NCBI GenBank assembly: GCA_011049595.1
Contig: DRHN01000450.1
Span: 1-40,497, forward strand
DNA length: 40,497 nt
Origin: Spirochaetota bacterium
GTDB lineage: Bacteria; Spirochaetota; B62-G9; DRHN01
Direction of reading: 5' to 3'
Shown here: piece by piece, positions 4,350 to 28,324 of the stretch
How positions within the stretch are numbered: position 1 is the stretch's first letter
Layout of the letters: each line of letters starts with the position of its first letter
Notes under the pieces: generated by a model
What the model was told of the DNA's origin: nothing
Seen by the model: the letters and a program-made list of their open reading frames with translations, nothing else
Databases searched by the model: none
Program-made: the position numbers and the translations under genes

Positions 4350-4365
4350 GGGTTGATTGTAAAGG

Positions 4366-11744: not shown

Positions 11745-11760
11745 TGCAATAATTATGCCA
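11745..11760 (-). promoter_or_regulatory. Sigma-54 (-24/-12) promoter
   Basis: Minus strand TGGCA-TAATTA-TTGCA has canonical GG-N10-GC spacing. It lies about 125 nt upstream of the 11621 start and next to a bEBP gene. Confidence 0.88.
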
Positions 11761-12013: not shown

Positions 12014-13954
12014 TTAGTTGTTGTTTATTTTTCTCCATAATGTTGTTCGGCCGATACCGAGTTTTTCAGCGGCAGCCGTTTTATTACCATTTTCTTTTTG
12101 AATCACTTTTTCAATTATTGTTCGCTCGATATCTTCCAGACTACCCATTAAAGGAATCCTTATACTCTTTTGAGGCGTATCAAAACCGTATCCGTCATCA
12201 ATGCCTAAGATTAATTTGCTGCCCGGCAACGATTTTAAAACAAACTTTACATTTTTGGCAGTTATGTAACCTTCCTTTGTTTTTACCATAAGTCTTTCAA
12301 TTATATTTTCCAGTTGTCTGATATTACCCGGCCAATTGTAATTCATTAACAGCTGCGTCCCCTCTTTGGAAATGCCTTCAATAACAATCTTAAATTTATG
12401 TGTGTATTTCCTGACAAAATAGTTTGCCAATAATGGTATATCAATTTTGCGCGCGCGGAGAGGTGGAAGGTTTATGTTTAACACATTGATTCTATAGTAA
12501 AGATCTTCTCTAAATGTATTACATTCAATCAGAGAATAAAGGTCTTTGTTCGTTGATGCTACTACCCGGACATCTACGTGAGTCAATTTATTGTCTCCCA
12601 GCCTCCTTACCTTTCGCTCCTGAATAACACGAAGCAGCCGGGATTGTAAATTAATCGAAATTTCACCAATTTCATCAAGAAATATTGTGCCCTCATGCGC
12701 CTGTTCAAAAAGACCCATTTTACCTTTTTTATTTGCCCCTGTAAAAGCTCCTTCCACATACCCGAAAAGCTCGCTTTCAAGAAGGTTTTCCGGAAGGGCC
12801 GCGCAATTTACCGCCACAAAAGGTTTATTCTTTCTCAGACTCACATTGTGAATCGCCTGAGCAAATAATTCTTTTCCGGTTCCAGTTTCACCATATATCA
12901 GTATGGGAGAATCTACCTGAGCGTAATTCCTGGCCTCCTCCTTTATATATAATATCACTTCGCTTTCCCCGATGATGTCATCGAAACTATTCTCTGCTGT
13001 ATGCCCCTTTAAATATAACTCCTCCCTTATCTTTTGCTCCACCTTCTGTATTTGAGAGACTTTTTGGAATGTAACTATTACTTTGACTATTTCTTTGTTG
13101 ATAATGATTGGAATAACATTAGCCACAATTTTTATACCATCTATTGCCCAGACCTTGCCTTTTGACGTACAGCCGTTTTGAACGGTATTCAACAGATCCA
13201 TACCTGGAAGAACTTCCCCAATGTTTTTTCCAATAACTTTATAAGCTTCCTTGTTAAAAATTTCTTCCGCCCTCGGATTAAAAGTATCAATAACGCCCGC
13301 CCGGTTAATGCTGATAATGCCTTCATAAGCGTAATCTATAATGGTCTTTACCCGTTTCGCCTTTTCGCTTTCCTGCCTTTTAACCTTCAGGACCCGCTCG
13401 GCTTCAAAAAGAGCCTGTATAAGAGCTTCTTTCCCTGATCTGATCAGCAGAGCATTCAATCCTAATTCTTTGGCTGTTTTAACAGAAATAGTATCCCCAA
13501 CAACCCAATTAATACCCATCTTCTTAATATCTTCAAGTTTGGTTTTAATACTGTCTGTATGATGGAAACAATCAAAGTCCAGCGTTATGACATTGAGCTC
13601 AATATTAAAAATATCTCCCAGGTCTTTGATTCCATCTGTGAACGGATTAAAACCAACGATTGCAATTTTATCTGTATGCTCTTTGGCCTGCTGCAGCACA
13701 CGTATCAAATCAAACCCGCTGACCTGTATTTCAACCACAGAAAGATTTATCAGCTCCCCTTTCATCGCTGCGGCAGTTCCCCCTCTGCTTATAACAACAT
13801 CAAAGCCCTTCTCTTCAAGCTCTACCGCTTTTCGAACTCCTTCATCGAGATCTCCTATCTCAATGTGAATGTCTTTTTTAAGTTCTCTGCACACATCATC
13901 AAACAATTCAGCCAATTTTTTATACGGCGCAATAAAAGCTATCGGCTTTGTCAT
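12014..13954 (-). CDS. Sigma-54-dependent activator (PrpR_N + PAS + AAA+ + Fis HTH)
   Basis: N-terminal VVISRGGTA (PrpR_N type), PAS segment, GETGTGKE, ESELFGY..GAFTGA, FLDEIGE, WPGNIRQL and C-terminal LGIGRTTLWRK. Confidence 0.93.
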   Translation of the reverse strand: MTKPIAFIAPYKKLAELFDDVCRELKKDIHIEIGDLDEGVRKAVELEEKGFDVVISRGGTAAAMKGELINLSVVEIQVSGFDLIRVLQQAKEHTDKIAIVGFNPFTDGIKDLGDIFNIELNVITLDFDCFHHTDSIKTKLEDIKKMGINWVVGDTISVKTAKELGLNALLIRSGKEALIQALFEAERVLKVKRQESEKAKRVKTIIDYAYEGIISINRAGVIDTFNPRAEEIFNKEAYKVIGKNIGEVLPGMDLLNTVQNGCTSKGKVWAIDGIKIVANVIPIIINKEIVKVIVTFQKVSQIQKVEQKIREELYLKGHTAENSFDDIIGESEVILYIKEEARNYAQVDSPILIYGETGTGKELFAQAIHNVSLRKNKPFVAVNCAALPENLLESELFGYVEGAFTGANKKGKMGLFEQAHEGTIFLDEIGEISINLQSRLLRVIQERKVRRLGDNKLTHVDVRVVASTNKDLYSLIECNTFREDLYYRINVLNINLPPLRARKIDIPLLANYFVRKYTHKFKIVIEGISKEGTQLLMNYNWPGNIRQLENIIERLMVKTKEGYITAKNVKFVLKSLPGSKLILGIDDGYGFDTPQKSIRIPLMGSLEDIERTIIEKVIQKENGNKTAAAEKLGIGRTTLWRKINNN

Positions 13955-14017
13955 GGATGCCCCCCTTAGCAGTAGTTACTTATATTATAAATACTGTTTT
14001 TATTATCAGTATTTCTA

Positions 14018-14233
14018 TTAGCTGTATGAAATAACATATCTCACTGCATCTTTTATTTCATCAACCTGAGGTATTGACGCATTTTCAAGCGATGCAGAAT
14101 AAGGGACAGGGACATCCGCACCCCCTACAATACCGCTTCTGAACAACAGGGTTGCTTTTTCTTCGAAGAACCTTATTTTAAGCATCATTTCATACATTTC
14201 AATCATTTTGCTCTCGGGTAATATTTTTTCCAT
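14018..14233 (-). pseudogene. Remnant of an E1 alpha + E1 beta gene pair (alpha N-terminus fused in frame to beta C-terminus)
   Basis: MYEMMLKIRFFEEK..LFRSGIVGG matches an E1 alpha start. VGGADVPVPYSASLENASIPQVDEIKDAV matches an E1 beta end. Confidence 0.85.
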
Positions 14234-14319
14234 TTTCTACAGAGTCTCCAATAAAAATCATTTGGAAAACAGGAGAAACCAGTGCATGAGGGTCGCTGTT
14301 AACATTAAAAGGAACGATA

Positions 14320-14607
14320 TCAGTTTTTCCTTTTCATGCCGGTGAGAGCCTCAAAATCATACTCTTCACCCGGCTCACCTATAATCCCCATCGGTGCGCC
14401 GACAGGAAAAACCTGCTCCGGTTCTGCTATTTTTTCTAAAAGCACACCTTCATATAAGGATTCAATATCCAGTATCGATTTTTCAGTTTCGATCTGAAAT
14501 AGAGGTTCTTCAACCTCTACTTCTTCTCCGACTTCTTTTAGCCAACCTACAAATATATTCTCAGTTGTCATTATATCTGAACGCGGCATTACAACAACCT
14601 TAGCCAT
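14320..14607 (-). CDS. Stand-alone lipoyl/biotinyl-attachment domain protein
   Basis: MP...W.K..GE.V...EPL..IETEKS...IES...GVL lipoyl pattern. It stops after a short tail, and no E2 remnant was seen downstream. Confidence 0.85.
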   Translation of the reverse strand: MAKVVVMPRSDIMTTENIFVGWLKEVGEEVEVEEPLFQIETEKSILDIESLYEGVLLEKIAEPEQVFPVGAPMGIIGEPGEEYDFEALTGMKRKN

Positions 14608-14723
14608 AATTTATAATTCCTTTCACAATAGGCAATAATTTCTATCCTGCATAGTCATTTAAAATTACCAACAACCAGTAGTATTATTAAAACGAAGGTT
14701 AATCCAACGCAAACACGACGGAG

Positions 14724-15755
14724 TTACTTTTTTGATTGTTCATTCTCAAGCTCCTCCATTTTTACAGTAGTGAGAACTCTTCGCCGCGCGGTGTATACAG
14801 CAAATGACACTGCCACAATAAGCATTGACCCGTTAAACAACGGCTCCACAAAGAACTCGGCTCCCATCTGCTGAAGACCTGAAACAGCAACGGCAAGCAT
14901 CAGCACCGCGACCACAGTACCCCCGACATTCATCCTGCCGGGACGGATCGATGTGGCACCCAACAGCGCCCCTGTAAAAGCGGGCAGCAGGTAATTCGGA
15001 CCCGTAGATATCTGACCCACACGCAGCTGAGACGCAAGAATAACCCCCGCGATACTAACAATAACAGATGAGATGATGAAAGTGAGTGTAACGTATTTTA
15101 CCCTTGATATACCGACCAGTTCTGCGGCACGTGTATTTGCTCCAAGGGCGTAAAAATAGCGCCCCAACGGTAAATACTCATATACAAGCCACAGGATAGC
15201 TCCTATCACGATTACAAAAAAAATCGGGATCGGAATGCCAAAAACATTTAGACCGAGCTTCAAAAAACCTGCCGCAAGGTCCTTTCCCAGCACCTGCGCA
15301 CCTCCGGTAACCCAGAATCCGATACCGTACAGGATAGTCCCGCTTCCAAGCGTCGCGATAAAGGCATGTATACCCACACGGGTTATCAGTGTTCCGTTAA
15401 TAAAACCATAAACAGCTCCCATGGCGATCATAATAACAACAATGACTCCCCAGGGTAATGCCGTAACATTCTGAAGTGATATCATTACGATATGCACCAG
15501 TCCAACGAGATAGCCGACTGATAAATCAAAATTATCCGTTGATAACGGCACCATCTCTGCAAGAGCGAGCAATAAAACAACTGACTGGGTATTCAGCATG
15601 GTGCGGAGGTTGAAAGCAGTTGGAAATGTATCAGGCATGAGAGCGGAAAATACAACAATAAGAGTGCCTAAAAATACTGCCAGCCCGTAATTAGAAAAAA
15701 ACTGCAGGATTGATTGTGAAGCCGTTTTCTTCAACTGTCCTGAAGACTTTTCCAT
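14724..15755 (-). CDS. Sugar ABC transporter permease (RbsC family)
   Basis: FDLSVG, AFIATLG, GRYFYALGAN..AA.LVG and LLGATS motifs; multiple hydrophobic segments. ATG 15755 after GAGGA. Confidence 0.92.
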   Translation of the reverse strand: MEKSSGQLKKTASQSILQFFSNYGLAVFLGTLIVVFSALMPDTFPTAFNLRTMLNTQSVVLLLALAEMVPLSTDNFDLSVGYLVGLVHIVMISLQNVTALPWGVIVVIMIAMGAVYGFINGTLITRVGIHAFIATLGSGTILYGIGFWVTGGAQVLGKDLAAGFLKLGLNVFGIPIPIFFVIVIGAILWLVYEYLPLGRYFYALGANTRAAELVGISRVKYVTLTFIISSVIVSIAGVILASQLRVGQISTGPNYLLPAFTGALLGATSIRPGRMNVGGTVVAVLMLAVAVSGLQQMGAEFFVEPLFNGSMLIVAVSFAVYTARRRVLTTVKMEELENEQSKK

Positions 15756-15756
15756 C

Positions 15757-17325
15757 TTAATCCTCACATTGCACACTGTATTTTTGCCCGGTATGCTCAA
15801 TTAGTCCGGAGGCAATACCTGTAAGCTGCTCAATCGAAAGGTCTTTTTTTGATATCTCAGCAGTTACCAAACCGCGATTGAATACTATCGCGCGGTGACA
15901 GATCCCGGCAACTTCCTCAAAATCAGAGGAAATAAGCAAAACTCCTTTACCTTCATTTAACCCTTCTTCCATCAAAGCGTAAATATCAGCTTTGGCGCCC
16001 ACATCAACTCCGAAAGTCGGCTCTTCAAGAATCAGGATTTTACTCCCAGCCTCGAATAACCTGGCAAGTATCACTTTTTGCTGATTCCCACCGCTTAAAG
16101 TACTGACAATCCGTTCACCATCCATGGGTTTTACTGTAAAACGTTTGAGAGTTACCTCACATTTATCACGCTCTTCCTTTTTGTATATCGCCGACAATAC
16201 ATTCCGGTCATCGGATACAGGGTTTAAATAGATATTCTCCCGCACAAAAAGACTCTGCGCAAGACTCTCCTCGGCCCTTTTGCTCGAAAGAAAGCCGATC
16301 CCAGCTCTTCTTGCTTCCACCGGGTTCGTCACCTGTACAGATAACCCGTTTACAACAATATCTCCATAATACGCGTCCATAATTCCGAAAAGAGCACGAC
16401 CGACACCCTGATGGCCAGCTCCCCGCAGTCCAACAAGCCCTAAAATCTCGCCTGCTTTTAGCTCGAAAGAAACAGACTTCACGCATCCAACCCTCATGTT
16501 TTGGACCTTTAAAAGGACTTTCGCGGAAGGTGGAGGCGGTTCTATAAAAACCTCAGCTGGAGGTCTTCCTACGATCTTCAAGACAAGGTCGGCCGGCGGT
16601 GTATCTTTTACGAATGTTGTTGATACCTTCTTACCATTACGTAATACAGTCACCCGGTCAGCGATACGATATACTTCATCGAGACGGTGTGTAACATAGA
16701 TTACACCAACACCTCTTTCCCTAATCTGTTTTAAAAAATCGAACAATTTTGCCACATCGTTTTCCGGTAAAGTGGCAGTCGGCTCATCCAAAATGATAAG
16801 GCTCGCCTTTACAGCTAGAGCTCGAGAGATCGCGACAATCGATTTTTCAGCTGAAGATAGTTTCGAAATTTCGGTTTCGAAATCCACAGTGCTCCCCATC
16901 ATTTTTAATACATCCAACGCTCTTTGATTTGTCTCCTGCCAGGAAATAAAACCTTTACGCTTCTTGTAACCGAGGACAAGAGCAATGTTTTCAGCCACAG
17001 TCATGGACTCTATAAGACCAAGGTCCTGATGGATGAACGAAATGGGCAGTTCCTGCGTGTATAGCTGTATCTCTTCACCCTTTATCCAGGCCTTACCGGA
17101 ATCAGGCTCATACTCAGGAATACCCGCAAGTATTTTAATCAATGTAGATTTTCCCGCCCCATTTTCCCCGAGCAGTGCGTGTATTTCTCCCGGATAAACA
17201 TCAAAATCAACACCATCCAGAGCGCGTGTGCCTGTAAATGTCTTCGATAAACCACGTATCACTAAAAGGGGTACAGTCGAGGTATTTTGAGCCTCCTTCC
17301 CGTCCGGTTTTATGTCGGCCACCAT
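15757..17325 (-). CDS. Sugar ABC transporter ATP-binding protein (RbsA/MglA type, tandem NBD)
   Basis: GENGAGKST, LDEPT, LSGGNQQKV and EEPTFGVDVGAK motifs. The likely start is ATG 17325 after AGGAG. Confidence 0.93.
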   Translation of the reverse strand: MVADIKPDGKEAQNTSTVPLLVIRGLSKTFTGTRALDGVDFDVYPGEIHALLGENGAGKSTLIKILAGIPEYEPDSGKAWIKGEEIQLYTQELPISFIHQDLGLIESMTVAENIALVLGYKKRKGFISWQETNQRALDVLKMMGSTVDFETEISKLSSAEKSIVAISRALAVKASLIILDEPTATLPENDVAKLFDFLKQIRERGVGVIYVTHRLDEVYRIADRVTVLRNGKKVSTTFVKDTPPADLVLKIVGRPPAEVFIEPPPPSAKVLLKVQNMRVGCVKSVSFELKAGEILGLVGLRGAGHQGVGRALFGIMDAYYGDIVVNGLSVQVTNPVEARRAGIGFLSSKRAEESLAQSLFVRENIYLNPVSDDRNVLSAIYKKEERDKCEVTLKRFTVKPMDGERIVSTLSGGNQQKVILARLFEAGSKILILEEPTFGVDVGAKADIYALMEEGLNEGKGVLLISSDFEEVAGICHRAIVFNRGLVTAEISKKDLSIEQLTGIASGLIEHTGQKYSVQCED

Positions 17326-17400
17326 CTGATTCACACTCCTCGATTTCTTATTCTCCGGTTGGTTGAACATTGAAAGCCCGGATTGTGATCTACCAGGCAA

Positions 17401-17476
17401 TGTATAAAAATGTAAGATCTGAGCCCCCAATCTTCTATCATTGAAAACACAGGAACTCAGATCTTATTATTATACA
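17401..17476. repeat. Intergenic inverted repeat / stem-loop between the SBP and ATPase genes
   Basis: TAAGATCTGAG (17413-17423) and CTCAGATCTTA (17456-17466) are a perfect 11-bp IR, with outer arms TGTATAA/TTATACA. Confidence 0.7.
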
Positions 17477-17496
17477 CTTTTAAATATGGATGTCAA
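17469..17496 (-). promoter_or_regulatory. Consensus sigma-70 promoter internal to the ABC operon
   Basis: Minus strand TTGACA-N16-TATAAT; both hexamers are perfect. Confidence 0.7.
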
Positions 17497-17517
17497 TCTA
17501 TCAAGCAAATTACACGG

Positions 17518-18675
17518 TTATTTAACACCCCATATCTTTTTGTACCTGTCCTGGTAGCCGTTCTGAGGGATAAACTCATCATTAATGCCGCCTTCTTCAT
17601 CCACATTATCCGAATCTATACAGAACACAGGCTGGTGCCATGTATACACATCCTCACCATTGAAGTATCTGTTCATGGCGTCAAAAGTCTGATAGACAAA
17701 TAGGTCCCAGGGCTCAGGGATGGTAACAATCTGATATTCACCCTTTCGTATTCTGTCATATGCGCTTGGAGGTGCGTCCGACCCTAACAATATTACATCT
17801 TCCGTGGGAACTCCTCCCGAACGCAGAGAGGAAACCATAAAATCATAGTAGTAGTCTGCAATAGTCATTACATAGAATGGTTTCGGGTGTTCCTGTACCC
17901 ATTTCACGCCGATTTGCGGCATCTGCGTTGGAACTTCAGCTATGGGATAGTTCGCGTACTCAAGCAGTTCAACGCTGCTGACCTCAATAAACCGGTCTCG
18001 CATTGCTTCGGCTTTCGCGCGGGCAATCGCGTATAGAGCGTCATAGAGGACTATGGCCTTGCCCCTTCCGTTTGAATGCGCGATGATGTAATCGGCCAGC
18101 GCCGCTCCAATATCTCCAGGTCTTGTAGTGCTGTTGTACAACAGCCCGTATTCAGGAACAGGACCCGGAATGTGCAACGCGTGCATTCCGGTTACAGCGA
18201 TACCTTTATCATTCGCTTCCTGGATTGGAACCTGTAAAACTTCAGCATTAGCATCAATGAGAATTCCGTCGGGTTTCATGGAAATTGCCTGATTGAATCC
18301 CGCTATCCAGCTATCAACCGTACCTTTACCGTCTATACTTACAACTCTCCACCCGATTTCCTCCCCCAGCCGTTCAGCATAATCTGCCATTACTTTCACA
18401 ATATGGTTCTGAAAATTGGAACCGAGAAAAACAATAAACTTATCGGGAGCAAGTTTTGGCCCGGATGTCGGCCCAACCCACTCGGTCTGCGGGCCCTTTC
18501 GTTCATCTGTCAGCTCAATTGCCCTTTTGACCAGGGCCCTGTCTTCAGCCGAGAGCTCGGCGAGAGGAGCCCCCGTCACCGTATCAGCCGTTTCCTCCTT
18601 TTCTGAAGCGAAAGCCGGCACAATAAATGCCAAACATACAACTAATACCAGACAAAACAGTATCGGTTTTTTCAT
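17518..18675 (-). CDS. Sugar ABC transporter substrate-binding protein (periplasmic binding protein type 1)
   Basis: Signal peptide MKKPILFC...PAFA/SEKEE; IGWRVVSIDGKG, KPDGILI and AYDRIRKG..IVTIPEP. GGAGG RBS before ATG 18675. Confidence 0.88.
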   Translation of the reverse strand: MKKPILFCLVLVVCLAFIVPAFASEKEETADTVTGAPLAELSAEDRALVKRAIELTDERKGPQTEWVGPTSGPKLAPDKFIVFLGSNFQNHIVKVMADYAERLGEEIGWRVVSIDGKGTVDSWIAGFNQAISMKPDGILIDANAEVLQVPIQEANDKGIAVTGMHALHIPGPVPEYGLLYNSTTRPGDIGAALADYIIAHSNGRGKAIVLYDALYAIARAKAEAMRDRFIEVSSVELLEYANYPIAEVPTQMPQIGVKWVQEHPKPFYVMTIADYYYDFMVSSLRSGGVPTEDVILLGSDAPPSAYDRIRKGEYQIVTIPEPWDLFVYQTFDAMNRYFNGEDVYTWHQPVFCIDSDNVDEEGGINDEFIPQNGYQDRYKKIWGVK

Positions 18676-18922
18676 CTTTTCCTCCACTTAAATTATTGAG
18701 ATTAAAATTAAGAACATTTAAAAAATTTTTATACCCACCTGCTTCACGGTCGGCAAATTCTTGCAAAATACAGCATACTTTATTATTCAGTATACCTTTT
18801 CACAATACCGAAAAACTAGAACCATCGTTGATCATTTGTTCATAAAATATCCCACTATCGTAATTCTATTTTTCAAAAAAGCATTTTACTCACCTCCTTT
18901 TTATAATTAGTACCTGCCTTCT

Positions 18923-19972
18923 TTAATAAGTAAGCAGCTCTTGTACCGCCTGTACGATATGATGCTTTTGAGGAAGAACTGCTTCTTCCAGGGGATTCGT
19001 ACATTTTTTCAATTCATCAGATAACGCCGGTATGGCTCCGTAGCCGCCACCTTCTCCGGTACGTGTCAGGCTGAACGGTATAGGGGTATTTTTTGCAGCT
19101 ACAATCTTAATCGGCGCTTTCAACGACTTAAAAGCCTTTTCAGATACAATGCTTGAAATGTGCGCTCCGTATCCACCGCGCCTCACAGCTTCATGTGCTA
19201 TAACTAAACGTCCGGTCCTGCGAACCGAATGGAGGATCGCTTCTTCGTCCGTCGGAACAAGGGTACGGAGGTCGATTATCTCGGCGCTTATCCCTTCAGT
19301 TTCTAAATCCTCGGCTGCATCTATGGCAAAGTTCACCATATCCGACCAGGAGACGATCGTAACATCCTTACCTTTTCGCCTCACATTTGCAACACCCAGG
19401 GGAACAGTGTAATCACCTTCAGGAACAGGGCCTCTACTGTTATATAGCATTTTATGTTCTATAAAGATCACGGGGTCATCGTCACGTATAGAAGATAACA
19501 AAAGCCCCTTTGCATCAGCCGGAGTTGAGGGCATTACCACTTTCAGTCCGGGTATGTGGCAGTAAAGAGCTTCAAGACACTGGGAATGCTGGCAACCGAC
19601 AGACACACGGCCCCCTTCCTGCATCCTGATCACCATTGGAACTGAAGACTCTCCTCCTGTTATATAACGGATCTTTGCTGCACGGTTCATTATATGATCC
19701 ATTCCAAGTGTCGAAAAATCAATATACATGATTTCAAAAACCGGACGCATACCCGCTAAAGCGGCCCCAACAGCTGCCCCGGAGATAGCCTCTTCACTCA
19801 AAGGGGAATCTATCACCCTATCTGATCCGAATTCCTCCCACAACCCTGCCAGGACCATAAAGGTGTTGCCTAACCGGCCTATATCTTCACCCAAAAGAAA
19901 AACGCGGTCATCCTTCAACATCTCAAATCTTATTGCTTCTCTTATGGCCTCTGATCCCTTGATCTCTCTCAT
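18923..19972 (-). CDS. ThDP-dependent dehydrogenase E1 beta subunit (AcoB/PdhB-like)
   Basis: GEDIG, DSPLSE, RPVFEIMY, QHSQCLE and IDLRTLVP motifs. Confidence 0.92.
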   Translation of the reverse strand: MREIKGSEAIREAIRFEMLKDDRVFLLGEDIGRLGNTFMVLAGLWEEFGSDRVIDSPLSEEAISGAAVGAALAGMRPVFEIMYIDFSTLGMDHIMNRAAKIRYITGGESSVPMVIRMQEGGRVSVGCQHSQCLEALYCHIPGLKVVMPSTPADAKGLLLSSIRDDDPVIFIEHKMLYNSRGPVPEGDYTVPLGVANVRRKGKDVTIVSWSDMVNFAIDAAEDLETEGISAEIIDLRTLVPTDEEAILHSVRRTGRLVIAHEAVRRGGYGAHISSIVSEKAFKSLKAPIKIVAAKNTPIPFSLTRTGEGGGYGAIPALSDELKKCTNPLEEAVLPQKHHIVQAVQELLTY

Positions 19973-20095
19973 GGTCCCGTAGCCTCATGTGAACAACCTG
20001 TATATTTTAGCACTCAAATATTCCTGTCTGCTAGACAGAACTTCAATATTAATGTACCAACCCCTTCTCCCGTACCGTAAAAAAAAACGCACAAA

Positions 20096-21058
20096 TTATT
20101 TTTCCACGCCAAAAACATCTTTCAGCGCTATTTCAACATCAGGAAAGGGAGATCTCAGAGCATATTCAACCGCCTTCTCAATCTCCTCATCGATTTCCTT
20201 TTTCATATCGTTGTGGGCATCTTTACTAAGTAACCCGTTTTCTTCAAGAGTTTTTGCAAACGCTTTTACCGGGTCCTTTTTACGCCACATTGCAATTTCT
20301 TCTTTAGATCTATAGGTTTGCGGATCACCCTCCCGGTGGCCGCGCAACCGGTACGTTGTTATTTCCAAAAGTGTTGCACCATTGCCTTTTCTTGCCCGGT
20401 CTACCGCTCTACAGCCGGCTTCATACACTGCAATGGGATCATAGCCATCGATTTTCTCACCGGCAATGCCAAAGGCCTTAGCACGTGCTGAAAGACCGGG
20501 TTTTGCAGTAGATATTTCAGTATGGGTTGAAATTGCATAGAGATTATCTTCAAGAATCAGCAAAATAGGAAGCTTCCATAATGATGCCATATTCATTGCT
20601 TCATACAGGCACCCCTGATTTGCAGCCCCGTCTCCGAAAAAATACGCAGACAGATCACCATTTTTTTGAAGTTTCTGAGCAAGAGCCGTGCCGACCACAG
20701 GGCCAAACCCGCCTCCTACAATCCCATCAGCGTAAACATTGACATCAGTAGCAATAACATGCATATGGCCACCCTTGCCATGATTGTACCCCCACTCTCT
20801 CCCAAAAACCTCCGCAAGTACTTTATCCATCCGAGCCCCTTTTGCAAGAAGATGCCCGTGTGCGCGGTGAGTGCTGAAAACAAAATCCGGATCCCGCAAG
20901 TGAATACACACCCCGGATGCGATTGGTTCCTGGCCGATATACAGGTGTATGTGCCCGGGAATAAATCCTTCCGCGTAGAGTTGGATACATTTCTGCTCAA
21001 ATCGTCTTATTCGAAACATCGATTTATATAATAAAATCTGTTTTTCAGGATCTATCAT
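20096..21058 (-). CDS. ThDP-dependent dehydrogenase E1 alpha subunit (AcoA/PdhA-like)
   Basis: IRRFE, HLYIGQE, STHRAHGH, GKGGHMH, GDGAANQG..EDN and TYRLRGH motifs. Confidence 0.92.
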   Translation of the reverse strand: MIDPEKQILLYKSMFRIRRFEQKCIQLYAEGFIPGHIHLYIGQEPIASGVCIHLRDPDFVFSTHRAHGHLLAKGARMDKVLAEVFGREWGYNHGKGGHMHVIATDVNVYADGIVGGGFGPVVGTALAQKLQKNGDLSAYFFGDGAANQGCLYEAMNMASLWKLPILLILEDNLYAISTHTEISTAKPGLSARAKAFGIAGEKIDGYDPIAVYEAGCRAVDRARKGNGATLLEITTYRLRGHREGDPQTYRSKEEIAMWRKKDPVKAFAKTLEENGLLSKDAHNDMKKEIDEEIEKAVEYALRSPFPDVEIALKDVFGVEK

Positions 21059-21134
21059 TGCAGAAAAATCCCCCTGATGGACACAGAAATACGTTTAATA
21101 TCAAAGTTATTATATAAATTATTAGTGAAATAAC

Positions 21135-21150
21135 TGCAAAATTAATGCCA
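21135..21150 (-). promoter_or_regulatory. Sigma-54 (-24/-12) promoter
   Basis: Minus strand TGGCA-TTAATT-TTGCA with canonical spacing, about 77 nt upstream of the E1 alpha start. Confidence 0.88.
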
Positions 21151-21445
21151 ATTTAATTTTATTTATTTCAAAGTGCTAATCCGAGCTTGACCGGCTGATC
21201 CACATTTTCAAATAATTCAAGATTTTTTTAAATGTTTAATTGACCAAATATAATGAGTTATAAAGAATTAATAAAATATTGTATTCTACGCCTGAATACA
21301 CATTGAAACTATTTTAGCAAACCTTTAATATACAATTAATAATACAGATACGTGTCCACGGGCCTGTCATTTTTTCGAAAAAGACAGCTTAATGGCCTGA
21401 AATAATACATTTCATATTAATCTTATAGAAACCTATCTTTTTCTA

Positions 21446-21480
21446 TGTTTCAAAATAAAAAGGTGTTTCAAAAAGAAACG
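21446..21480. promoter_or_regulatory. Tandem degenerate copies of the TGTTTCA-N3-TGAAACA enhancer
   Basis: TGTTTCAAAATAAAAAG (21446-21462) and TGTTTCAAAAAGAAACG (21464-21480). Confidence 0.6.
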
Positions 21481-21546
21481 GTTCACTATAATCATTATTT
21501 CAAATAAATATCACAAATGAATTTAGACATTTTAATTTAGTCACTT

Positions 21547-21574
21547 ATTATACCAATATTATAAAAACTGTCAA
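21547..21574 (-). promoter_or_regulatory. Consensus sigma-70 promoter facing left
   Basis: Minus strand TTGACA-N16-TATAAT with a TG extended -10 (TGGTATAAT). Confidence 0.65.
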
Positions 21575-21829
21575 GTAAATATTTTCATTTTATTTTCTTG
21601 TAAATGAAAATTTATATTGATATTTTTAACTCCATAAAATATATTAAAATTTATGTTCGTATTAATTGTTTTATATTAAGAATTTACTACTTTATTGTTA
21701 ATCTATTTTATATTTTTCATTTAAACATTTTCATAATATAATATGAAAAACGGAAATATATATTAATACCAGCGCAACTCTTTTTATCAAGCAGATTTAA
21801 TCGGTAATTAACAAAAAAACGATCACAAA

Positions 21830-23362
21830 ATGAAAAAAACTGACAACTTTTTGATGGGTGCTGATATAGGAAGCAGTTCTTGCAAAATTAGTATTGTTGA
21901 CGATACTGGCAGAATATTGGCTTATGGAAATACCGATTATTTTGCCGAAACAAAAAAAGAAGGGTGGGCTGAACAAAATCCCGATGTCTGGTTTCAGGCT
22001 TTCAAATCATCTGTTCGACAATGCCTGAAGGAAAGTAGAATACCACCCTCCAAAATTTACGCGCTGAGCGTTTGCGGCCCGGCTCATAATGCAGTTCTTC
22101 TTGATAAAAATAATGAAGTTCTCCGGCCGGCAATTTTGTGGTGGGATCAACGCAGCACGCATCAGAGTGACTGGCTGCTTAAAAAATTTGGAAGAACAAT
22201 ATTTAAAACAACACTTCAGCCTGTACATCCAAGCTGGACACTCGCTCAACTACTCTGGATAAAAGAAAATGAACCATACATATTTAAGAAAATTCATCGA
22301 ATAATCATCGGAAAAGACTTTATTACATACAGACTCACCGGGTCATGGCAGACTGATTGGTATGATGCTATGGGAACACAGCTGTTCAATGGAAAAGCAA
22401 AAAAATGGTCAAAAGAGATCTGCCGGATATTAAACCTTCCTGTTAAATGCCTTCCACCGGTCCTTAACTCATTGGACATCGCAGGACATGTAACCCCTTG
22501 CGCAAGCATTGAAACAGGACTCCCTGTTGGTCTGCCGGTAGCTGTTGGAAGCGGAGATTCTGTAGTTGAAGCCTTCGGAGTCGCTGCCGTTGAACCAATG
22601 GACTGCCTTGTAAAACTGGCAACAACAGGGACGGTCAGTGTGGTGACCGCAAAACAGCACCCAAGCAAAAAGGCCATGTCGTATTTTCATGTAATCCCTG
22701 ACCTTTTTTACACAATTACCGCAACCAACTCCGGGGCGTCATCAGCTCAGTGGTTCTATAAAACATTTCATGATAATGCAAAAGATTCTTATGAAACCAT
22801 GGAACAGCTAGCGGAAAAAGTTGCACCAGGTAGTGAGGGTTTAATATTTCATCCCTACCTGAAGGGAGAACGCTCTCCATACTGGGACCCGGACCTGCGG
22901 GCTGATTTTATAGGTATTTCTCATACTCATAAAAAACAACACTTCATAAGAGCGGTCTTTGAAGGGGTGGCATTTTCCCTGCGGGATTGTATGGAATTGA
23001 TCAGAAGCATGGATATTCCAATTAAAAGAACTTTTCTGGTTGGAGGCGGTGCCAGAATCAAACTGTGGCGTCAAATTACCTCTGACATTCTTGCAACAAG
23101 GCTGCATATTCCAAAAGTGCCTTCTCTTTATGTTGCGACCTACGGGGCGGCCCTTCTCGCGGGTTTGGCCTCTGGAGTTTTTTCGAGTTTAAAGGAAATC
23201 ACTAAAATTGCCGGAAAATCTGATGAAACAATCAAACCCGATCCAAATTATGCGGATCAGTATGAAAAAACATATACAGTTTATAAAGAAATTACCCGGA
23301 ATTTACAGCCGATCTATAAAAAACTGAAAAATATTTACTCCGGTCAGAAATCTATTAAATAG
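21830..23362 (+). CDS. FGGY-family carbohydrate kinase (xylulokinase-like)
   Basis: GADIGSSSCK, GWAEQNP, AILWWDQRS, GSGD, PYLKGERSP, RAVFEGVAF and GGGA motifs. Confidence 0.9.
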   Translation: MKKTDNFLMGADIGSSSCKISIVDDTGRILAYGNTDYFAETKKEGWAEQNPDVWFQAFKSSVRQCLKESRIPPSKIYALSVCGPAHNAVLLDKNNEVLRPAILWWDQRSTHQSDWLLKKFGRTIFKTTLQPVHPSWTLAQLLWIKENEPYIFKKIHRIIIGKDFITYRLTGSWQTDWYDAMGTQLFNGKAKKWSKEICRILNLPVKCLPPVLNSLDIAGHVTPCASIETGLPVGLPVAVGSGDSVVEAFGVAAVEPMDCLVKLATTGTVSVVTAKQHPSKKAMSYFHVIPDLFYTITATNSGASSAQWFYKTFHDNAKDSYETMEQLAEKVAPGSEGLIFHPYLKGERSPYWDPDLRADFIGISHTHKKQHFIRAVFEGVAFSLRDCMELIRSMDIPIKRTFLVGGGARIKLWRQITSDILATRLHIPKVPSLYVATYGAALLAGLASGVFSSLKEITKIAGKSDETIKPDPNYADQYEKTYTVYKEITRNLQPIYKKLKNIYSGQKSIK

Positions 23363-23400
23363 AGTGATAGAGAGAAAAAATTTGTAAAGGAGCTTTTAAT

Positions 23401-24381
23401 ATGGATGATGTTTCTGAATTGAGATCATATGAACCTCAATTTTTAAAAAGCATTTTAAAAAAAATGGTAATGATCCGTGAATTCGAACTAAAAATCAACA
23501 GGCTGTTTCTTCAGGGAATGCTGCCCGGTACTATTCACCTGTCTCATGGTCAGGAGGCAACAGTTGTCGGGGTATGCGAGGCATTGAACACAGACGATGT
23601 CATAACAATCACACACCGAGGACACGGACAGGCGCTTGCAAAAGGTGTTACTCCGAAAGAGCTCATGGCCGAGCTTTTTGGTAAAAAAACCGGATGCTGC
23701 AAGGGTAAAGGAGGCTCTCTTCATGTAGGCAAAATGTCTGTTGGGGCTTTACCGGGAATTGCTATCGTGGCAGCTTCCGCACCCATTGCTTCTGGAATGG
23801 CCCTGGCATTTAAACAGAAAGGTTCAAAACAGGTATCTGTATGTTTTCATGGGGATGGCGCAAGTAACGAAGGCGATTGGCATGAGGCATTAAATCTAGC
23901 CGCTGTTTTCAAACTTCCTGTAATCTTCCTGTGTGAAAACAACCTTTACGCTGTCACAACCCATATAACTACTGTAACTTTGGTTCCTGATATCGCAAAA
24001 CGGGCCGGAGCATATGGAATTCCGGGAAAATCCGTGGATGGCAACGACCCGGTTGAAGTTTTCAAAGCTGCTAGCAGGGCAGTTGAGCACGCCAGGGGAG
24101 GGAAGGGGCCTACATTGCTTGAGTGTAAAACCTACCGGCAGGGCGGTCATAAACGTGATGACCCAGCGACTTACAGACCAAAGGAAGAAGTAGCTGCCTG
24201 GCTTGCTAAAGACCCCATTAAATGTTTTCAAGAGAAGTTAATGAAACTGGAAATAGTGGCCCCTAAAGATCTGGAAGTTATAAGACAGAGTGTTCTCGTA
24301 GAATTAAACGAAGCGGAGAAATTCGCGAAGGGAAGTCCGTTCCCGGAAGTAGAATCAGCCGCGGAGGGTGTCTATGCCTGA
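23401..24381 (+). CDS. ThDP-dependent dehydrogenase E1 alpha subunit
   Basis: IREFE, HLSHGQE, THRGHG, GKGGSLH, GDGASNEG..ENN and TYRQGGH motifs. Confidence 0.92.
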   Translation: MDDVSELRSYEPQFLKSILKKMVMIREFELKINRLFLQGMLPGTIHLSHGQEATVVGVCEALNTDDVITITHRGHGQALAKGVTPKELMAELFGKKTGCCKGKGGSLHVGKMSVGALPGIAIVAASAPIASGMALAFKQKGSKQVSVCFHGDGASNEGDWHEALNLAAVFKLPVIFLCENNLYAVTTHITTVTLVPDIAKRAGAYGIPGKSVDGNDPVEVFKAASRAVEHARGGKGPTLLECKTYRQGGHKRDDPATYRPKEEVAAWLAKDPIKCFQEKLMKLEIVAPKDLEVIRQSVLVELNEAEKFAKGSPFPEVESAAEGVYA

Positions 24382-25420
24382 ACCAAAAGGCAGAAATATC
24401 ACAGTTGTGGAAGCCATCCGGGAGGCTGTTACCCAGGAAATGAAAAATGATGAATCGGTGTTCATAATCGGTGAAGATATACGTATAGGCGGCTCTTTTT
24501 TATTTACATTAGGGCTGGTGGATAAATTCGGCCCGGATAGGATCATAGATATGCCTATATCCGAGTCCGGGTTCGTGGGAATGGCTATTGGCGCGGCCAT
24601 TCAGGGCCGCAGACCCATTGTGGATTTTCAGTACGGTGATTTTGTTTTGGAAGCGATGGATCAAATAATCCAGCAGGCTTCCAAGCTACATTATATGTCT
24701 GGAGGCCAGGTAAACATCCCAATTGTTCTTCAGATGCCGACAGGTGCTTCAGGCAGAGGTTCTCAACATGCGAACTCTGTAGAGGGTTTTTTCTTCCACA
24801 TACCGGGACTTAAATTGGTCACTCCATCCACCCCCTATGACGCAAAAGGTTTAATGATACGATCAATCAGAGATAATAATCCAGTTATGTTTTGTGTCCA
24901 CAAACACAACTACGGTAGCAAAGGCCGCCCTCTTTCAAATAGCACGATTGCAACCGGTCATGTCCCTCAAGAACCTTACACCATTGATTTTGGTAAAGCT
25001 GATATAAAAAGAACAGGAAAAGATGTTACAATTGTGTCAATTCTGAGAATGGTACACCTTTCTATCAACGCTGCTAAAGAATTACAAAAGGAAGGGATAA
25101 GTGCGGAAGTAATAGATCTTAGAACTCTTGTACCTCTTGATACGGAAACAATAATAGATTCAATTAAAAAAACACACAGGCTTGTGATTGTGCAGGAGGA
25201 CAACATGAGAGGGGGCTGGGGCTCCGAAGTGTCTGCAATTGTCGCTGAAAACGCACTTTCCTACCTTGACGCGCCTATTTTACGTGTCGCGTCTTTGGAC
25301 ACGCCTGTTCCTTTTTCACCGCTGCTGGAAGATATTGTAATTCCCAATGAAACAAGGATTATTAATACAGTCCGCACCCAAATGGATATGAATATAAAGA
25401 AGGATTTTAATGGTCAATGA
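24374..25420 (+). CDS. ThDP-dependent dehydrogenase E1 beta subunit
   Basis: GEDI, DMPISE, RPIVDFQY, SQHA, IDLRTLVPLD and DTPVPFS motifs. ATG 24374 after GGAGG overlaps the alpha stop. Confidence 0.92.
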   Translation: MPEPKGRNITVVEAIREAVTQEMKNDESVFIIGEDIRIGGSFLFTLGLVDKFGPDRIIDMPISESGFVGMAIGAAIQGRRPIVDFQYGDFVLEAMDQIIQQASKLHYMSGGQVNIPIVLQMPTGASGRGSQHANSVEGFFFHIPGLKLVTPSTPYDAKGLMIRSIRDNNPVMFCVHKHNYGSKGRPLSNSTIATGHVPQEPYTIDFGKADIKRTGKDVTIVSILRMVHLSINAAKELQKEGISAEVIDLRTLVPLDTETIIDSIKKTHRLVIVQEDNMRGGWGSEVSAIVAENALSYLDAPILRVASLDTPVPFSPLLEDIVIPNETRIINTVRTQMDMNIKKDFNGQ

Positions 25421-25652
25421 CATAGTAATCCCGCAAATAGGTGAAGCCTCCTCCGAATTCTATCTTGTTAAATGGCTTAAAAATACCGGTGATCGAGTGA
25501 CAGAAGGAGAGACGCTTTTTGAACTTGACATAGAGAAATCTGTTTTAGAAATAGAATCGGTTTATACCGGAATCTTAACTGAAATCCTGGTAGAGGAAGG
25601 AGAAAAAGTTATACCTCTACAGGTAGCAGGTAAAATCATAACGGATGAATGA
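25410..25652 (+). CDS. Stand-alone lipoyl-attachment domain protein
   Basis: IPQIGE...VKWLK..GD.V.EGE.L.ELDIEKS...IES...G.L; 80 aa; overlaps both neighbouring genes. Confidence 0.87.
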   Translation: MVNDIVIPQIGEASSEFYLVKWLKNTGDRVTEGETLFELDIEKSVLEIESVYTGILTEILVEEGEKVIPLQVAGKIITDE

Positions 25653-26064
25653 ATTGAGGGAAAAAATGACTGAAATTACCGTGAATAGCAATAAAAAAAT
25701 AGACGCAATTAATATCACTGGCAATATTTCCAATTTTATCCCCGAAAATGCTCAGGGATTTATCCATCTTTATTGCCCGCACTCCACTGCCGCTCTTATT
25801 ATAAGTGAATATGAGGATAAGCTGATCAAAGATCTCAAAAGTGTGGCCAACCGGCTTCTAGAGCATTGCGGACCCTTTGAACACAATGATAACAATAATC
25901 CAAACGCCTCCGCCCATATTTTAAGCAGCATTATGGGTGTCAGTACATGGGTTCCCGTTCAGAACGGCAAAATGAAATTGGGCAAATATCAAAATATTCT
26001 TTTGCTTGAACTGGATGGCCCCAAACAACGTAAAATTCAATTTTCTTTTATAAAAGCTGAATAG
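25645..26064 (+). CDS. yjbQ: YjbQ/UPF0047 family protein
   Basis: PHSTAAL, H.D..N..AHI and LGKYQNILLLELDGP motifs. Confidence 0.88.
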   Translation: MNELREKMTEITVNSNKKIDAINITGNISNFIPENAQGFIHLYCPHSTAALIISEYEDKLIKDLKSVANRLLEHCGPFEHNDNNNPNASAHILSSIMGVSTWVPVQNGKMKLGKYQNILLLELDGPKQRKIQFSFIKAE

Positions 26065-26109
26065 TAATTGTTTGTAAAATAAATAAAATTACGAATTAAT
26101 ACAATTTTA

Positions 26110-26985
26110 ATGGAAAATATCGAAAAAAGAAACAGTTTTAACTGGCTTTTAAAATTAAAAGCCATTTACAATTCATTAAAAACTGCGGAAAAAAATGCGG
26201 CCGAACATCTTCTAAAACATTCGAATTTGCTATCAGGGATGACAATAACAGAGGCTTCGAAATTTATTGGGTGCAGTCAGGCAACACTATTCCGCCTATC
26301 AAAAAAATTGGGGTTCAACGGTTACCCTGAGCTCCGTCAGGCATTCAAACTTAACCGGGATAGTAAAGAATTTTATCTTTACACTGATATAAAACAGGAT
26401 GATTCCAGTGAAAAAATACTAAACAAAGTTTTTTCCACCACTATTCACACCATCCAAAACACCCTGGATGTTGTGAATCTTTCTGAATATGATAAAGCTC
26501 TAAATGCGATTTTAAACGCAAACAAGATTTCATTTTTTGCTATCGGGGGAGCATCATCTGTAGCAATGATCGGATTTTATAAATTTAACCGTATCGGCTG
26601 TAATTGTACATATTATACTGATCCTGATCTATCACTTATCGCAGCCTCCCATTTAAAAAAACAGGATGTGTCAATCCTTATATCCCATTCAGGAAAAAGC
26701 AAACCTGTTATAAACGCTGCAAAATTAAGTAAAGATTCCGGAGCTACTTCAATATCAATTACTAATTTCCCTTTGTCCCCTCTGGCAAAAATCAGCGATA
26801 TTATTCTCTTAACGGCAGCTTTTGCTGAATATTCATCGAGAGATATTTTAGCCAACCGAGTTGCTCAGTTATGTCTGATAGAATCCCTTTATATCGGGGT
26901 GTTTAACATCCTGCACAAAAATAAAGATGAATTATTAAGTAATGTAAACAAGATTGACGATATCATTAAGTTAAATAAAGTGTAA
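26110..26985 (+). CDS. RpiR/MurR-family transcriptional regulator (HTH + SIS)
   Basis: SQATLFRLSKKLGFNGYPEL HTH; SIS motifs IGGAS, ISHSG and ITN..SPLA. Confidence 0.93.
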   Translation: MENIEKRNSFNWLLKLKAIYNSLKTAEKNAAEHLLKHSNLLSGMTITEASKFIGCSQATLFRLSKKLGFNGYPELRQAFKLNRDSKEFYLYTDIKQDDSSEKILNKVFSTTIHTIQNTLDVVNLSEYDKALNAILNANKISFFAIGGASSVAMIGFYKFNRIGCNCTYYTDPDLSLIAASHLKKQDVSILISHSGKSKPVINAAKLSKDSGATSISITNFPLSPLAKISDIILLTAAFAEYSSRDILANRVAQLCLIESLYIGVFNILHKNKDELLSNVNKIDDIIKLNKV

Positions 26986-27760: not shown

Positions 27761-28324
27761 TCATTCTACATCAAATTCTAATATCACACGCTCGCCTGCC
27801 ACGAGTGAATACTTCCCCTTTTCCAGGCCATCTATAAGCACACTCGGTTCGGTAACATGCCCATGGGCCTCTATTTTTTTGCCGTCAAGGTAAAAGAAAA
27901 AACTCTTTCCCTCGGCACGCGTAATTTCGGCACAAAATTTACCGCCTTTGTCGCCAAAGATGTCAACATTCATTACATCGGTTTTCAGCCTGTATATGAT
28001 TTTTTCTTCATCCCCTATATGCCCTAAAGTGCCTTTCAGTTCCAGAGGGACAAACAAATCCGGACCGGTTAAGTTTTTAATGATCCGGATCCCATCCTTT
28101 AACAGTTTAAAAACCGCCCTCCTGTGCATCAATCTCTCAGGAACATCCATCAGCTTCATCGAGTTCATCAGAAAAAGATCCTTCTCGAGAGCAAGGAGGG
28201 CCCCGGCGCACTCTTTACAGGCCAATATGTGCTCTGAAAACCTCTTTTCAGCCTCGTTTTCAAGAGCCCTGTCATAGTACAGGGATATATAATCCGGATC
28301 ATTAAAACGGCATTTCTTCATCAT
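27761..28324 (-). CDS. Soluble zf-HC2 (ZAS-like) putative anti-sigma factor with C-terminal beta-rich domain
   Basis: C-x7-ISLYYD..L......F.EHILACKEC (HxxxCxxC); no hydrophobic TM segment; overlaps the upstream sigma-like gene. Confidence 0.7.
   Translation of the reverse strand: MMKKCRFNDPDYISLYYDRALENEAEKRFSEHILACKECAGALLALEKDLFLMNSMKLMDVPERLMHRRAVFKLLKDGIRIIKNLTGPDLFVPLELKGTLGHIGDEEKIIYRLKTDVMNVDIFGDKGGKFCAEITRAEGKSFFFYLDGKKIEAHGHVTEPSVLIDGLEKGKYSLVAGERVILEFDVE

Follow-up and report, generated by a model that had tools for sequence, protein, structure and literature searches.

Stand-alone lipoyl proteins beside E1 alpha/beta pairs in two sugar operons: possible cassettes relying on unlinked E2 and E3

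The window analysed here, the whole of contig DRHN01000450.1 (C450; 40,497 nucleotides) in the assembly GCA_011049595.1 of a Spirochaetota bacterium, contains two divergent operons in which the alpha and beta subunits of a thiamine diphosphate (ThDP)-dependent E1 enzyme are encoded together with a small protein that consists of a lipoyl domain and lacks the remainder of an E2 acyltransferase. We read these operons as substrate-specific E1/lipoyl cassettes for sugar-derived alpha-hydroxyketones (ketose or 1-deoxyketose phosphates) that rely on an E2 and an E3 (dihydrolipoamide dehydrogenase) encoded at unlinked loci, a reading that we put forward tentatively, as possible and somewhat short of probable. 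The pattern of an E1 pair with a lipoyl-only protein is family-wide and more general than first observed.

The gene content that the first-pass annotation described from the bare sequence is confirmed. Both E1 pairs are intact by their Pfam E1 domains, and the ThDP/Mg motif of E1 alpha subunits, GDG-X(25-27)-N(N), reads GDGAANQG...LEDN in operon 1 and GDGASNEG...CENN (GDG-X26-NN) in operon 2. Against TIGR03182, the equivalog model of the pyruvate dehydrogenase (PDH) E1 alpha subunit, the two alpha subunits score 337.8 and 339.0 bits, respectively, and do not reach the cut-off of 393.85. The operon-1 beta subunit exceeds the cut-off of NF006667 (362.6 against 321) and, aligned with its operon-2 counterpart, has an insertion of ~25 aa near the C-terminus; the best solved relative of the operon-2 beta subunit is the Geobacillus PDH E1 beta (2.5e-87). 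Each pair has its own small lipoyl protein, of 95 aa in operon 1 and 80 aa in operon 2, in which PF00364 is the only Pfam domain. Both pairs lie in carbohydrate operons: a sugar ATP-binding cassette (ABC) importer is part of operon 1, and operon 2 includes an FGGY kinase that scores above the cut-off of the XylB model TIGR01312 (417.4 against 380.25). The 80-aa lipoyl gene overlaps its upstream neighbour by 11 nt and its downstream neighbour by 8 nt. By Pfam scans the operons diverge from an AT-rich spacer at 21059-21829 (Table 1).

The E1/lipoyl layout is not a misassembly of the 4.44-Mb metagenome-assembled genome (89% complete, 7.7% contamination) to which the window belongs. Marine-sediment metagenomes from two studies contain near-identical DNA. 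Logan contigs of run X1 are collinear with the window over 13901-15779 and 15938-26200, and those of run X2, from the other study, over 13901-15849, 15851-20463 and 20465-26200, where either run may be the source of the window itself. These contigs show no insertion or deletion at either lipoyl gene, and because collinear contigs from two studies bridge both genes, an assembly artefact is excluded. Single-base indels separate the window from contigs of runs X2 and X3 at 17423 and 20079, one at the annotated 5' end of the ABC ATPase open reading frame (ORF) and the other in the spacer between the E1 alpha and E1 beta genes; the long, TTG-initiated ATPase ORF probably starts further downstream. 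The nearest named relatives at the locus are Pelolinea and other Anaerolineae.

Table 1. Features of the two operons, their surroundings and the unlinked core-only E2
Feature	Position	Strand	Evidence and remarks
E1 alpha, operon 1, 320 aa	20096-21058	-	PF00676 E1_dh, 263.6 bits
E1 beta, operon 1, 349 aa	18923-19972	-	PF02779 Transket_pyr and PF02780 Transketolase_C
Periplasmic sugar-type binding protein	17518-18687	-	PF13407 Peripla_BP_4
ABC ATPase, two ABC_tran domains	15757-17430	-	PF00005, two stretches
ABC permease, ribose/branched-chain type	14724-15800	-	PF02653 BPD_transp_2
Stand-alone lipoyl-domain protein, 95 aa	14320-14607	-	PF00364 Biotin_lipoyl, 30.9 bits (cut-off 22.1)
Relic ORF, 71 aa	14018-14233	-	E1 alpha N-terminus joined to extreme E1 beta C-terminus
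Sigma-54 dependent activator (PrpR_N, PAS, AAA+, HTH_8)	12014-13954	-	Pfam; downstream of operon 1
Sigma-54 type -24/-12 element TGGCATTAATTTTGC, putative	21136-21150	-	TGGCAT-N5-TTGC; intergenic, ~80 nt upstream of operon-1 E1 alpha start
FGGY sugar kinase, xylulokinase-like	21830-23362	+	PF00370 and PF02782
E1 alpha, operon 2, 326 aa	23401-24381	+	PF00676, 277.5 bits
E1 beta, operon 2, 350 aa	24368-25420	+	Transket_pyr and Transketolase_C
Stand-alone lipoyl-domain protein, 80 aa	25410-25652	+	PF00364, 52.4 bits (cut-off 22.1)
UPF0047/YjbQ family protein	25645-26064	+	TIGR00149, 97.6 (above cut-off 67.75)
RpiR-type regulator with SIS (sugar-phosphate binding) domain	26110-26985	+	PF01418 and PF01380; after operon 2
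Truncated short-chain dehydrogenase/reductase (SDR)	9849-10547	-	Profile positions 1-175 of 236
Fused E1 alpha-beta ORF, 514 aa	81-1625	-	Three segments missing relative to C45 paralogue
Core-only E2, 235 aa	contig C219, 26959-27666 (= L093:6960-7667)	-	DHR..DG motif; no lipoyl or E3-binding domain

In the hairpin of both small proteins, K43 is the candidate lipoyl-lysine (E-T/I-E-K-S; ETEK/IEK). It is invariant in all 13 aligned stand-alone lipoyl proteins and aligns with the lysine of the (S/E)TDK motif in solved lipoyl domains of E2 and of the E3-binding protein (E3BP/protein X), which we take to be the lipoylated residue. AlphaFold models of the 95- and 80-aa proteins have a mean pLDDT of 56.0 and 57.7, too low to be used for recognising the flattened beta-barrel of lipoyl domains. 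The first-pass annotation had likened these proteins to the glycine-cleavage carrier GcvH, and here it was mistaken: neither matches PF01597, in a scan that recognised a true GcvH in the Anaerolineae locus L010, and both are of the E2 type by PF00364, lacking by Pfam both the E2 catalytic domain and the E3-binding domain.

The origin of the carriers is suggested by the closest homologues of operon 2. In a quick tree of E1 alpha subunits, in which many deep forks lack support and which we use only for this clade and for the scatter of E2-less loci, operon 2 groups with a Pelolinea locus (L009) and a locus from an Anaerolineae metagenome-assembled genome (L010) at an SH-aLRT support of 100. The operon-2 E1 subunits are 60-64% identical to their counterparts in both loci, and the three loci share the gene order FGGY, E1 alpha, E1 beta, with a different gene in the next slot. 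In Pelolinea this slot holds a complete E2 of 432 aa (lipoyl, two E3_binding stretches and catalytic core), followed by UPF0047 and RpiB; in L010 it holds a 179-aa lipoyl+E3_binding protein without a core; in the window it holds the 80-aa protein, which is most likely what remains of an E2 after loss of the core and, later, of the E3-binding domain. Because a full E2 or a lipoyl+E3_binding protein holds the same slot in these homologues, we regard the carriers as reduced E2s, unrelated to GcvH. Among NCBIfam models, the 95-aa protein matches best the acetoin E2 model NF011457, at its lipoyl end, and the best PDB matches of its family include 2dnc and 1zy8 (protein X).

Reduction of an E2 may mean function retained in a smaller protein, or it may mean decay, with lipoyl-only genes as the remains of E2 genes in a locus that is losing its function and E1s that are idle or disappearing. 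The full E2 in the Pelolinea slot fits such decay, as do relatives with a 59-aa lipoyl fragment and stop-bearing E1 alpha frames, and the window itself contains damaged genes. The 71-aa ORF at the left edge of the system matches the N-termini of E1 alpha subunits over residues 1-42 (34-46% identity) and the last ~35 residues of E1 beta paralogues over residues 35-71 (36-47%); the matches are individually weak (E 0.003-0.1) and all lie at the expected ends. We interpret this ORF as the scar of a deleted third E1 pair with no functional part, so that position 14018, from which the first-pass annotation had counted the system, is the end of a relic and not of a working component. A tandem of the kind that could leave such a scar stands in G012, a relative whose genome is closed: E1 alpha, E1 beta, lipoyl+E3_binding (159 aa), E1 alpha, E1 beta, lipoyl-only (94 aa). 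The truncated SDR has lost ~60 C-terminal residues, and at the start of the next SDR gene (9095-9862) its sequence runs out in unrelated residues; the fused E1 ORF lacks residues 1-84, 318-412 and 644-756 of its 756-aa paralogue on contig C45, and with them the whole Transketolase_C domain.

Set against this damage, the lipoyl genes themselves look maintained. The 95-aa carrier has eight short homologues of 91-99 aa at 70-95% identity in a large protein database, a family in which the ETEK motif is invariant and the acidic tail GEPGEEYDxxxLxG (GEPGEEYD) is conserved, and the 80-aa carrier has four of 79-84 aa at 64-90%, in searches that covered near lengths only. For the operon-2 lipoyl family, a metagenome scan gave three contigs of 1.2-1.7 kb and a genome scan one distant locus. 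Both strain differences listed inside the lipoyl genes are synonymous, in a sample of two sites. The first-pass annotation had held that truncated E2 genes in close relatives would count against it, and the finding is divided: a full E2 does occupy the slot in Pelolinea, whereas relatives at 64-95% identity keep the small size. Since they do, both lipoyl genes appear to be conserved small genes rather than decaying stumps. The invariant lysine, the conserved tail, the tidy gene boundaries with overlaps of 8-11 nt, the intact E1 frames with their cofactor motifs, the lack of any E2 remnant in six frames of the window and the recurrence of small lipoyl genes in relatives all argue in the same direction, and we consider decay of the locus improbable.

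For recurrence, 19 relatives of the same class were searched with Pfam for lipoyl domains, and the loci were then retrieved. Five of the 19 carry, in the stretches fetched, a total of eight small lipoyl or lipoyl+E3_binding genes without an E2 core, and an E1 pair adjoins seven of the eight. The layout recurs beside FGGY and PfkB kinases, sugar isomerases and sugar ABC importers. G012 has three modules (94 aa lipoyl-only; 159 and 174 aa lipoyl+E3_binding), one of which adjoins AP_endonuc_2 isomerases, a lactonase and a split transketolase. In G016, an FGGY kinase directly follows a carrier of ~80 aa; in G006, the genes after an 80-aa carrier encode a PfkB kinase, a class-III aminotransferase and a sugar ABC importer; and G004 has two carriers (83 and 102 aa), near which lie an AraA-like isomerase, SDRs and a GFO/IDH/MocA oxidoreductase. 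The contig with the 81-aa carrier of G015 is 1.1 kb long and shows no E1 pair. The aligned stand-alone lipoyl proteins are only 23-38% identical to the 95-aa carrier, and we therefore take the modules to be long-diverged.

Farther afield, in a comparison set of 80 loci with E1 homologues, the lipoyl domain is mostly found on a full E2, as it is at a locus in the genome of the window (contig C314) that combines an aminotransferase, an E1 pair, a sugar importer and a cyclase with a full E2. Four of the distant loci (L045, L057, L068 and L087) instead have an N-terminal lipoyl domain fused to a protein of 567-581 aa beside a core-only E2; from their length and a weak label these fusion proteins are probably E3s, and similar lipoyl-first ORFs of 575 and at least 497 aa occur in L012 and L051. 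Two loci carry the lipoyl domain at the C-terminus of E1, on a fused E1 of 789 aa (L054 7968-10337) and on an E1 beta of 368 aa (L086 9079-10185). Christensenella has a lipoyl-only gene with an SDR, an E1 pair, an aldehyde dehydrogenase and a sigma-54 activator, and a Thermoprotei metagenome-assembled genome encodes lipoyl domain (80 aa) and core (280 aa) as separate genes. E2-less loci are scattered across the E1 alpha tree. Because the lipoyl domain is found on E2, on fused proteins, at the C-terminus of E1 or alone, the position of the lipoyl arm seems to be evolutionarily fluid in this E1 group. No account of E1 pairs accompanied by free-standing lipoyl proteins at sugar loci turned up in searches of open-access papers and preprints.

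The claim that no E2 core or E3 is present holds for the window: its Pfam-scanned ORFs contain neither 2-oxoacid_dh nor Pyr_redox_dim, and no E2 catalytic core (2-oxoacid_dh, DHR..DG motif) is found in its six frames, where a hidden Markov model (HMM) of 66 E2 cores gives a best E-value of 1.7. It does not extend to the genome. There, PF00198 finds ~10 E2 catalytic domains; at least eight lie in open frames of 368-469 aa that also carry a lipoyl domain, and most of these full E2 genes adjoin their own E1 pair. One genuine LpdA is encoded on contig C203, the second Pyr_redox_dim match being a MerA-like protein. LipA is present, and among four BPL_LplA_LipB matches, two are of the BirA type beside biotin carriers and the other two (C179 and C294), non-BirA and with no biotin carrier adjoining, are candidate lipoate-attachment enzymes. 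A core-only E2, whose neighbours are unrelated glycosyltransferase, HAD and RecR genes, has orthologues in 18 of the 19 relatives (57-77% identity, frames of 234-296 aa). It is the obvious candidate for discharge, and each of the full E2s is a candidate as well.

Lipoylation, the substrate class, the acyl group and the discharging enzyme are what we infer, and the proposed sequence of events is as follows. The small protein would be lipoylated by the LipA and ligase of the cell. The cognate E1 would then cleave a sugar-derived alpha-hydroxyketone, either a ketose phosphate or a 1-deoxyketose phosphate, freeing a shortened aldose(-phosphate) and loading a C2 unit (glycolyl or acetyl) onto the lipoyl lysine, such that a ketose phosphate would yield glycolyl-lipoyl and a shorter aldose phosphate, and a 1-deoxyketose phosphate would yield acetyl-lipoyl. 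An E2 catalytic core encoded elsewhere, on one of at least eight full E2s or on the core-only E2, would move the acyl group to coenzyme A, and the single unlinked LpdA would reoxidise the arm. E1 enzymes accept their isolated cognate lipoyl domains as good substrates, and the E1 of acetoin dehydrogenase cleaves an alpha-hydroxyketone, acetoin, to acetaldehyde and acetyl-lipoyl.

A different partner for the carriers, as in the strong form of the first-pass interpretation, would be an enzyme outside the E2 family, with a diffusible acyl-lipoyl carrier discharged without any E2 core; candidates for it are UPF0047, a putative cyclase/hydrolase and a glyoxalase-fold protein. The genes are suitably placed: UPF0047 follows the lipoyl gene in the window and the E2 gene in Pelolinea, PF04199 Cyclase proteins stand beside E1 modules in G012, G006 and on contig C314, and glyoxalase-fold proteins stand beside E1 pairs on contigs C314 and C339; core-less lipoyl+E3_binding proteins, moreover, would tether only E1 or E3. 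UPF0047 cannot replace an E2, however, since in Pelolinea it is found together with a complete one, and E2 cores are plentiful in the genome. To our knowledge, none of the UPF0047, cyclase and glyoxalase-fold families acts on acyl-lipoyl groups, and we hold such a discharge to be very improbable. The operon-2 UPF0047 has no match at E<=1e-25 among 400 other sampled genomes of the phylum.

For the substrate of the E1s, we argue from gene context. A kinase and a regulator with a SIS domain accompany operon 2, an importer lies inside operon 1, and on the same strand as operon 1 are two alcohol dehydrogenases, two SDRs, a split transketolase, a DRL-family oxidoreductase, a DUF1537 acid-sugar kinase and PdxA. 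The Pelolinea locus with its full E2 comprises an ABC importer, FGGY, E1, E2, UPF0047 and RpiB, as well as a lactonase and an aldo-keto reductase, and a plasmid of Sinorhizobium americanum (NZ_CP013052; L131) combines a sugar kinase, a sugar ABC importer and a DRL-like oxidoreductase, 36% identical to that of the window, with E1, E2 and LpdA.

The same context admits a more conventional account, in which the E1s belong to 2-oxo-acid dehydrogenases (for pyruvate, a branched-chain or a sugar-acid-derived 2-oxo acid), dock on the full E2s of the genome and use the small lipoyl protein as an extra arm. The best NCBIfam and PDB matches of the E1s are indeed PDH E1 subunits, full E2s are abundant, sugar-acid genes lie nearby (the DUF1537 kinase and PdxA in the window, the lactonase and aldo-keto reductase in Pelolinea), and the E2 of the nearest homologue is a normal one, with two E3_binding domains. 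Yet both alpha subunits fall under the PDH equivalog cut-off, no 2-oxo-acid-forming dehydratase is found by Pfam in either operon, most of the full E2s are already paired with adjoining E1s of their own, and the kinase, the RpiR/SIS regulator and the RpiB of Pelolinea point to a phosphosugar rather than an acid. The layout also favours acyloin cleavage on general grounds. If every cassette produced the same C2 acyl group, one shared E2 core would suffice and dedicated E2s would be dispensable; with 2-oxo acids the acyl groups would differ and dedicated E2s would be the rule. We consider the 2-oxo-acid account rather unlikely.

Taken further, the acyloin reading would make the cassettes a modular sixth lipoate-dependent system, in which many cassettes at sugar and polyol loci cleave ketoses or 1-deoxyketoses (or their phosphates), produce one common C2 acyl group and share one E2 core and E3. 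A single common acyl group would explain why the E2 has shrunk to a lipoyl domain in locus after locus; so broad a system seems to us distinctly unlikely. PMC6067878 counts only five characterised lipoate-dependent enzyme complexes, besides the LbpA sulfur system.

Several observations weigh against our preferred reading of acyloin-cleaving cassettes with an unlinked E2. Both alpha subunits score closest to the PDH model, and the E1 sequences do not separate 2-oxo-acid from acyloin substrates; for residues that would do so, the portion of PMC2663715 available to us gives no usable discriminator. The closest homologue of operon 2 carries a conventional E2, so that the ancestral system was most likely an ordinary E1-E2 complex, of which the state in the window could be a loss. 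Operon 1 has no orthologues in the genomes searched, with a best E1 alpha identity of 40-47% and none above 47% in the 19 relatives. The damage in the same array (the E1 relic, the truncated SDR and the fused E1 without three segments) belongs on this side too.

The same holds for the E2 side of the scheme. The core-only E2 is also kept in G001 and G002, in which no lipoyl domain above the Pfam cut-off is found except in frames of biotin-carrier size and no E1 alpha is found at E<=1e-60, and its role may for that reason be unrelated to the cassettes. By similarity it lies nearest to E2s other than that of Pelolinea, and we discount it as evidence for the lost half of an operon-2 E2 and treat it as no more than a candidate. 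E1 pairs on contigs C339 and C362 and fused E1s on C45, C322 and C311, all short contigs, have no E2 or lipoyl gene adjoining, and because several E1s stand in this way, proximity of E1 to E2 or lipoyl genes is no rule in this genome.

Of the known systems, acetoin dehydrogenase is close in several respects. It consists of the E1 AcoA/AcoB, the E2 AcoC and the E3 AcoL, with the sigma-54 activator AcoR in Bacillus. The window shares with it the heterotetramer-type E1 alpha/beta, the match of the 95-aa protein to the acetoin E2 model, and alcohol and short-chain dehydrogenases downstream. Control by an AcoR-type activator may be a further resemblance, for operon 1 only: it has a sigma-54 activator gene and a -24/-12-like site, where the sensor is PrpR_N/PAS and the count of such sites is not above chance. 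E1 alpha homologues at 44-52% identity lie in sigma-54/E1/E2/E3 operons of Clostridia and Desulfobacterota. Unlike it, the operons of the window lack an E2 acyltransferase and an E3, have the lipoyl domain as a separate small protein, and include a sugar ABC importer or an FGGY kinase.

With pyruvate and branched-chain 2-oxo-acid dehydrogenase complexes, the window has in common the E1 fold and motifs and an E2-type lipoyl domain (solved relatives at 1e-41 to 1e-87), and differs from them in alpha subunits under the PDH cut-off, in a partner without E2 core or E3-binding domain and in its sugar operons. In eukaryotic protein X (E3-binding protein) and in lipoyl-E3 fusions, as in the carriers, the lipoyl domain is borne by a protein other than the catalytic E2; a core-forming domain is retained in protein X, whereas the proteins of the window have neither a core-forming nor an E3-binding domain. 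GcvH and LbpA are free-standing lipoylated carriers that shuttle between separately encoded enzymes, according to PMC6067878. They are of the PF01597 family, unlike the PF00364 proteins of the window, and serve as an aminomethyl carrier (GcvH) and in sulfur oxidation (LbpA); neither pairs with an E1 alpha/beta.

The proposed chemistry is nearest to that of the glycolicacyl systems of tetrahydroisoquinoline and scleric acid biosynthesis, QncN/QncL/QncM and SclQ1-4. In the former, a ketose phosphate such as xylulose-5-phosphate is converted to a lipoyl-bound glycolicacyl unit via a ThDP-dependent E1-like enzyme (PMC6335953). We take the Qnc type to be the only described case of this chemistry, and we liken it to the window by analogy of reaction and not of sequence. 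It differs in having an acyltransferase domain and a dedicated acyl carrier protein (ACP) and in feeding a non-ribosomal peptide synthetase; in the scanned ORFs of the window there is no acyltransferase or ACP domain and no biosynthetic cluster, and the context is catabolic.

The first-pass interpretation was plausible in kind, overstated as to the absence of E2 and E3 and wrong as to GcvH, with ketose cleavage and a non-canonical discharge partner as pure conjecture. What gives the cassettes their interest is that conserved E1s are wired into sugar-uptake and sugar-kinase operons of Chloroflexota-like sediment bacteria, and with full E2/E3 on rhizobial plasmids, and this points to a reaction of carbohydrate catabolism that depends on lipoate and is still uncharacterised. 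In the lipoyl-only and lipoyl+E3-binding forms, nature has in effect made a "minimal E2", which shows that the swinging arm can outlast the core; these forms bear on complex assembly and on the recognition of the arm by E1. Were ketose phosphates the substrates, the system would be the oxidative equivalent of phosphoketolase and transketolase, with a thioester as product; were the E1s ordinary 2-oxo-acid enzymes that borrow an E2, the finding would reduce to an unusual gene layout.

As to regulation, operon 1 appears to be sigma-54 dependent, judging from the activator gene downstream of it and from the element TGGCATTAATTTTGC, which has one mismatch to TGGCAC-N5-TTGC. The activator scores under every NCBIfam equivalog cut-off. 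A second -24/-12-like element, TGGCATAATTATTGC, lies at 11746-11760 on the minus strand, ~125 nt upstream of the Zn-alcohol dehydrogenase gene that starts at 11621. Position is all that singles out these elements, since matches of this kind are not above chance across the window (23 observed against 27.9 expected). Terminator-like sites are likewise not above chance (12 against 13.2 in shuffles) and promoter-like sites are in modest excess (49 against 38.0, sd 6.4), and the ends of the operons are not defined by the scan.

Beyond operon 1 on the minus strand, a cluster at 2260-8978 encodes a Tdh-like Zn-dehydrogenase, PdxA, the DUF1537 kinase (D-threonate-kinase-like, below the cut-off), the DRL-family oxidoreductase and the split transketolase, a set typical of C4/C5 acid-sugar and branched-sugar catabolism. 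DRL homologues lie near E1 genes in 5 of the 80 distant loci. A neighbourhood in which a DRL-family (DXR-like) oxidoreductase accompanies E1 alpha/beta and E2 (and E3) recurs in L021, L024, L027, L055 and L080 and on the Sinorhizobium plasmid (L131), apparently with an undescribed function. A link to ApnO was considered and set aside: ApnO has a KARI-like fold, the available text of PMC13753588 mentions no lipoyl, thiamine or PDH component with it, and it offers no explanation of the E1s.

The genome as a whole encodes ~12 E1 alpha paralogues. Four further E1 pairs (C95, C339, C362 and C314) stand in sugar-type contexts, with AP_endonuc_2, a PGDH_C/KARI_N protein, class-II aldolase, FGGY, LacI/GntR regulators and sugar ABC importers, and the fused E1 has full or partial copies on contigs C45, C322 and C311. 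To the right of operon 2, the minus strand at 27761-30513 encodes in a row a zf-HC2 anti-sigma-like protein, a family-less ORF and a CHAT-domain protein.

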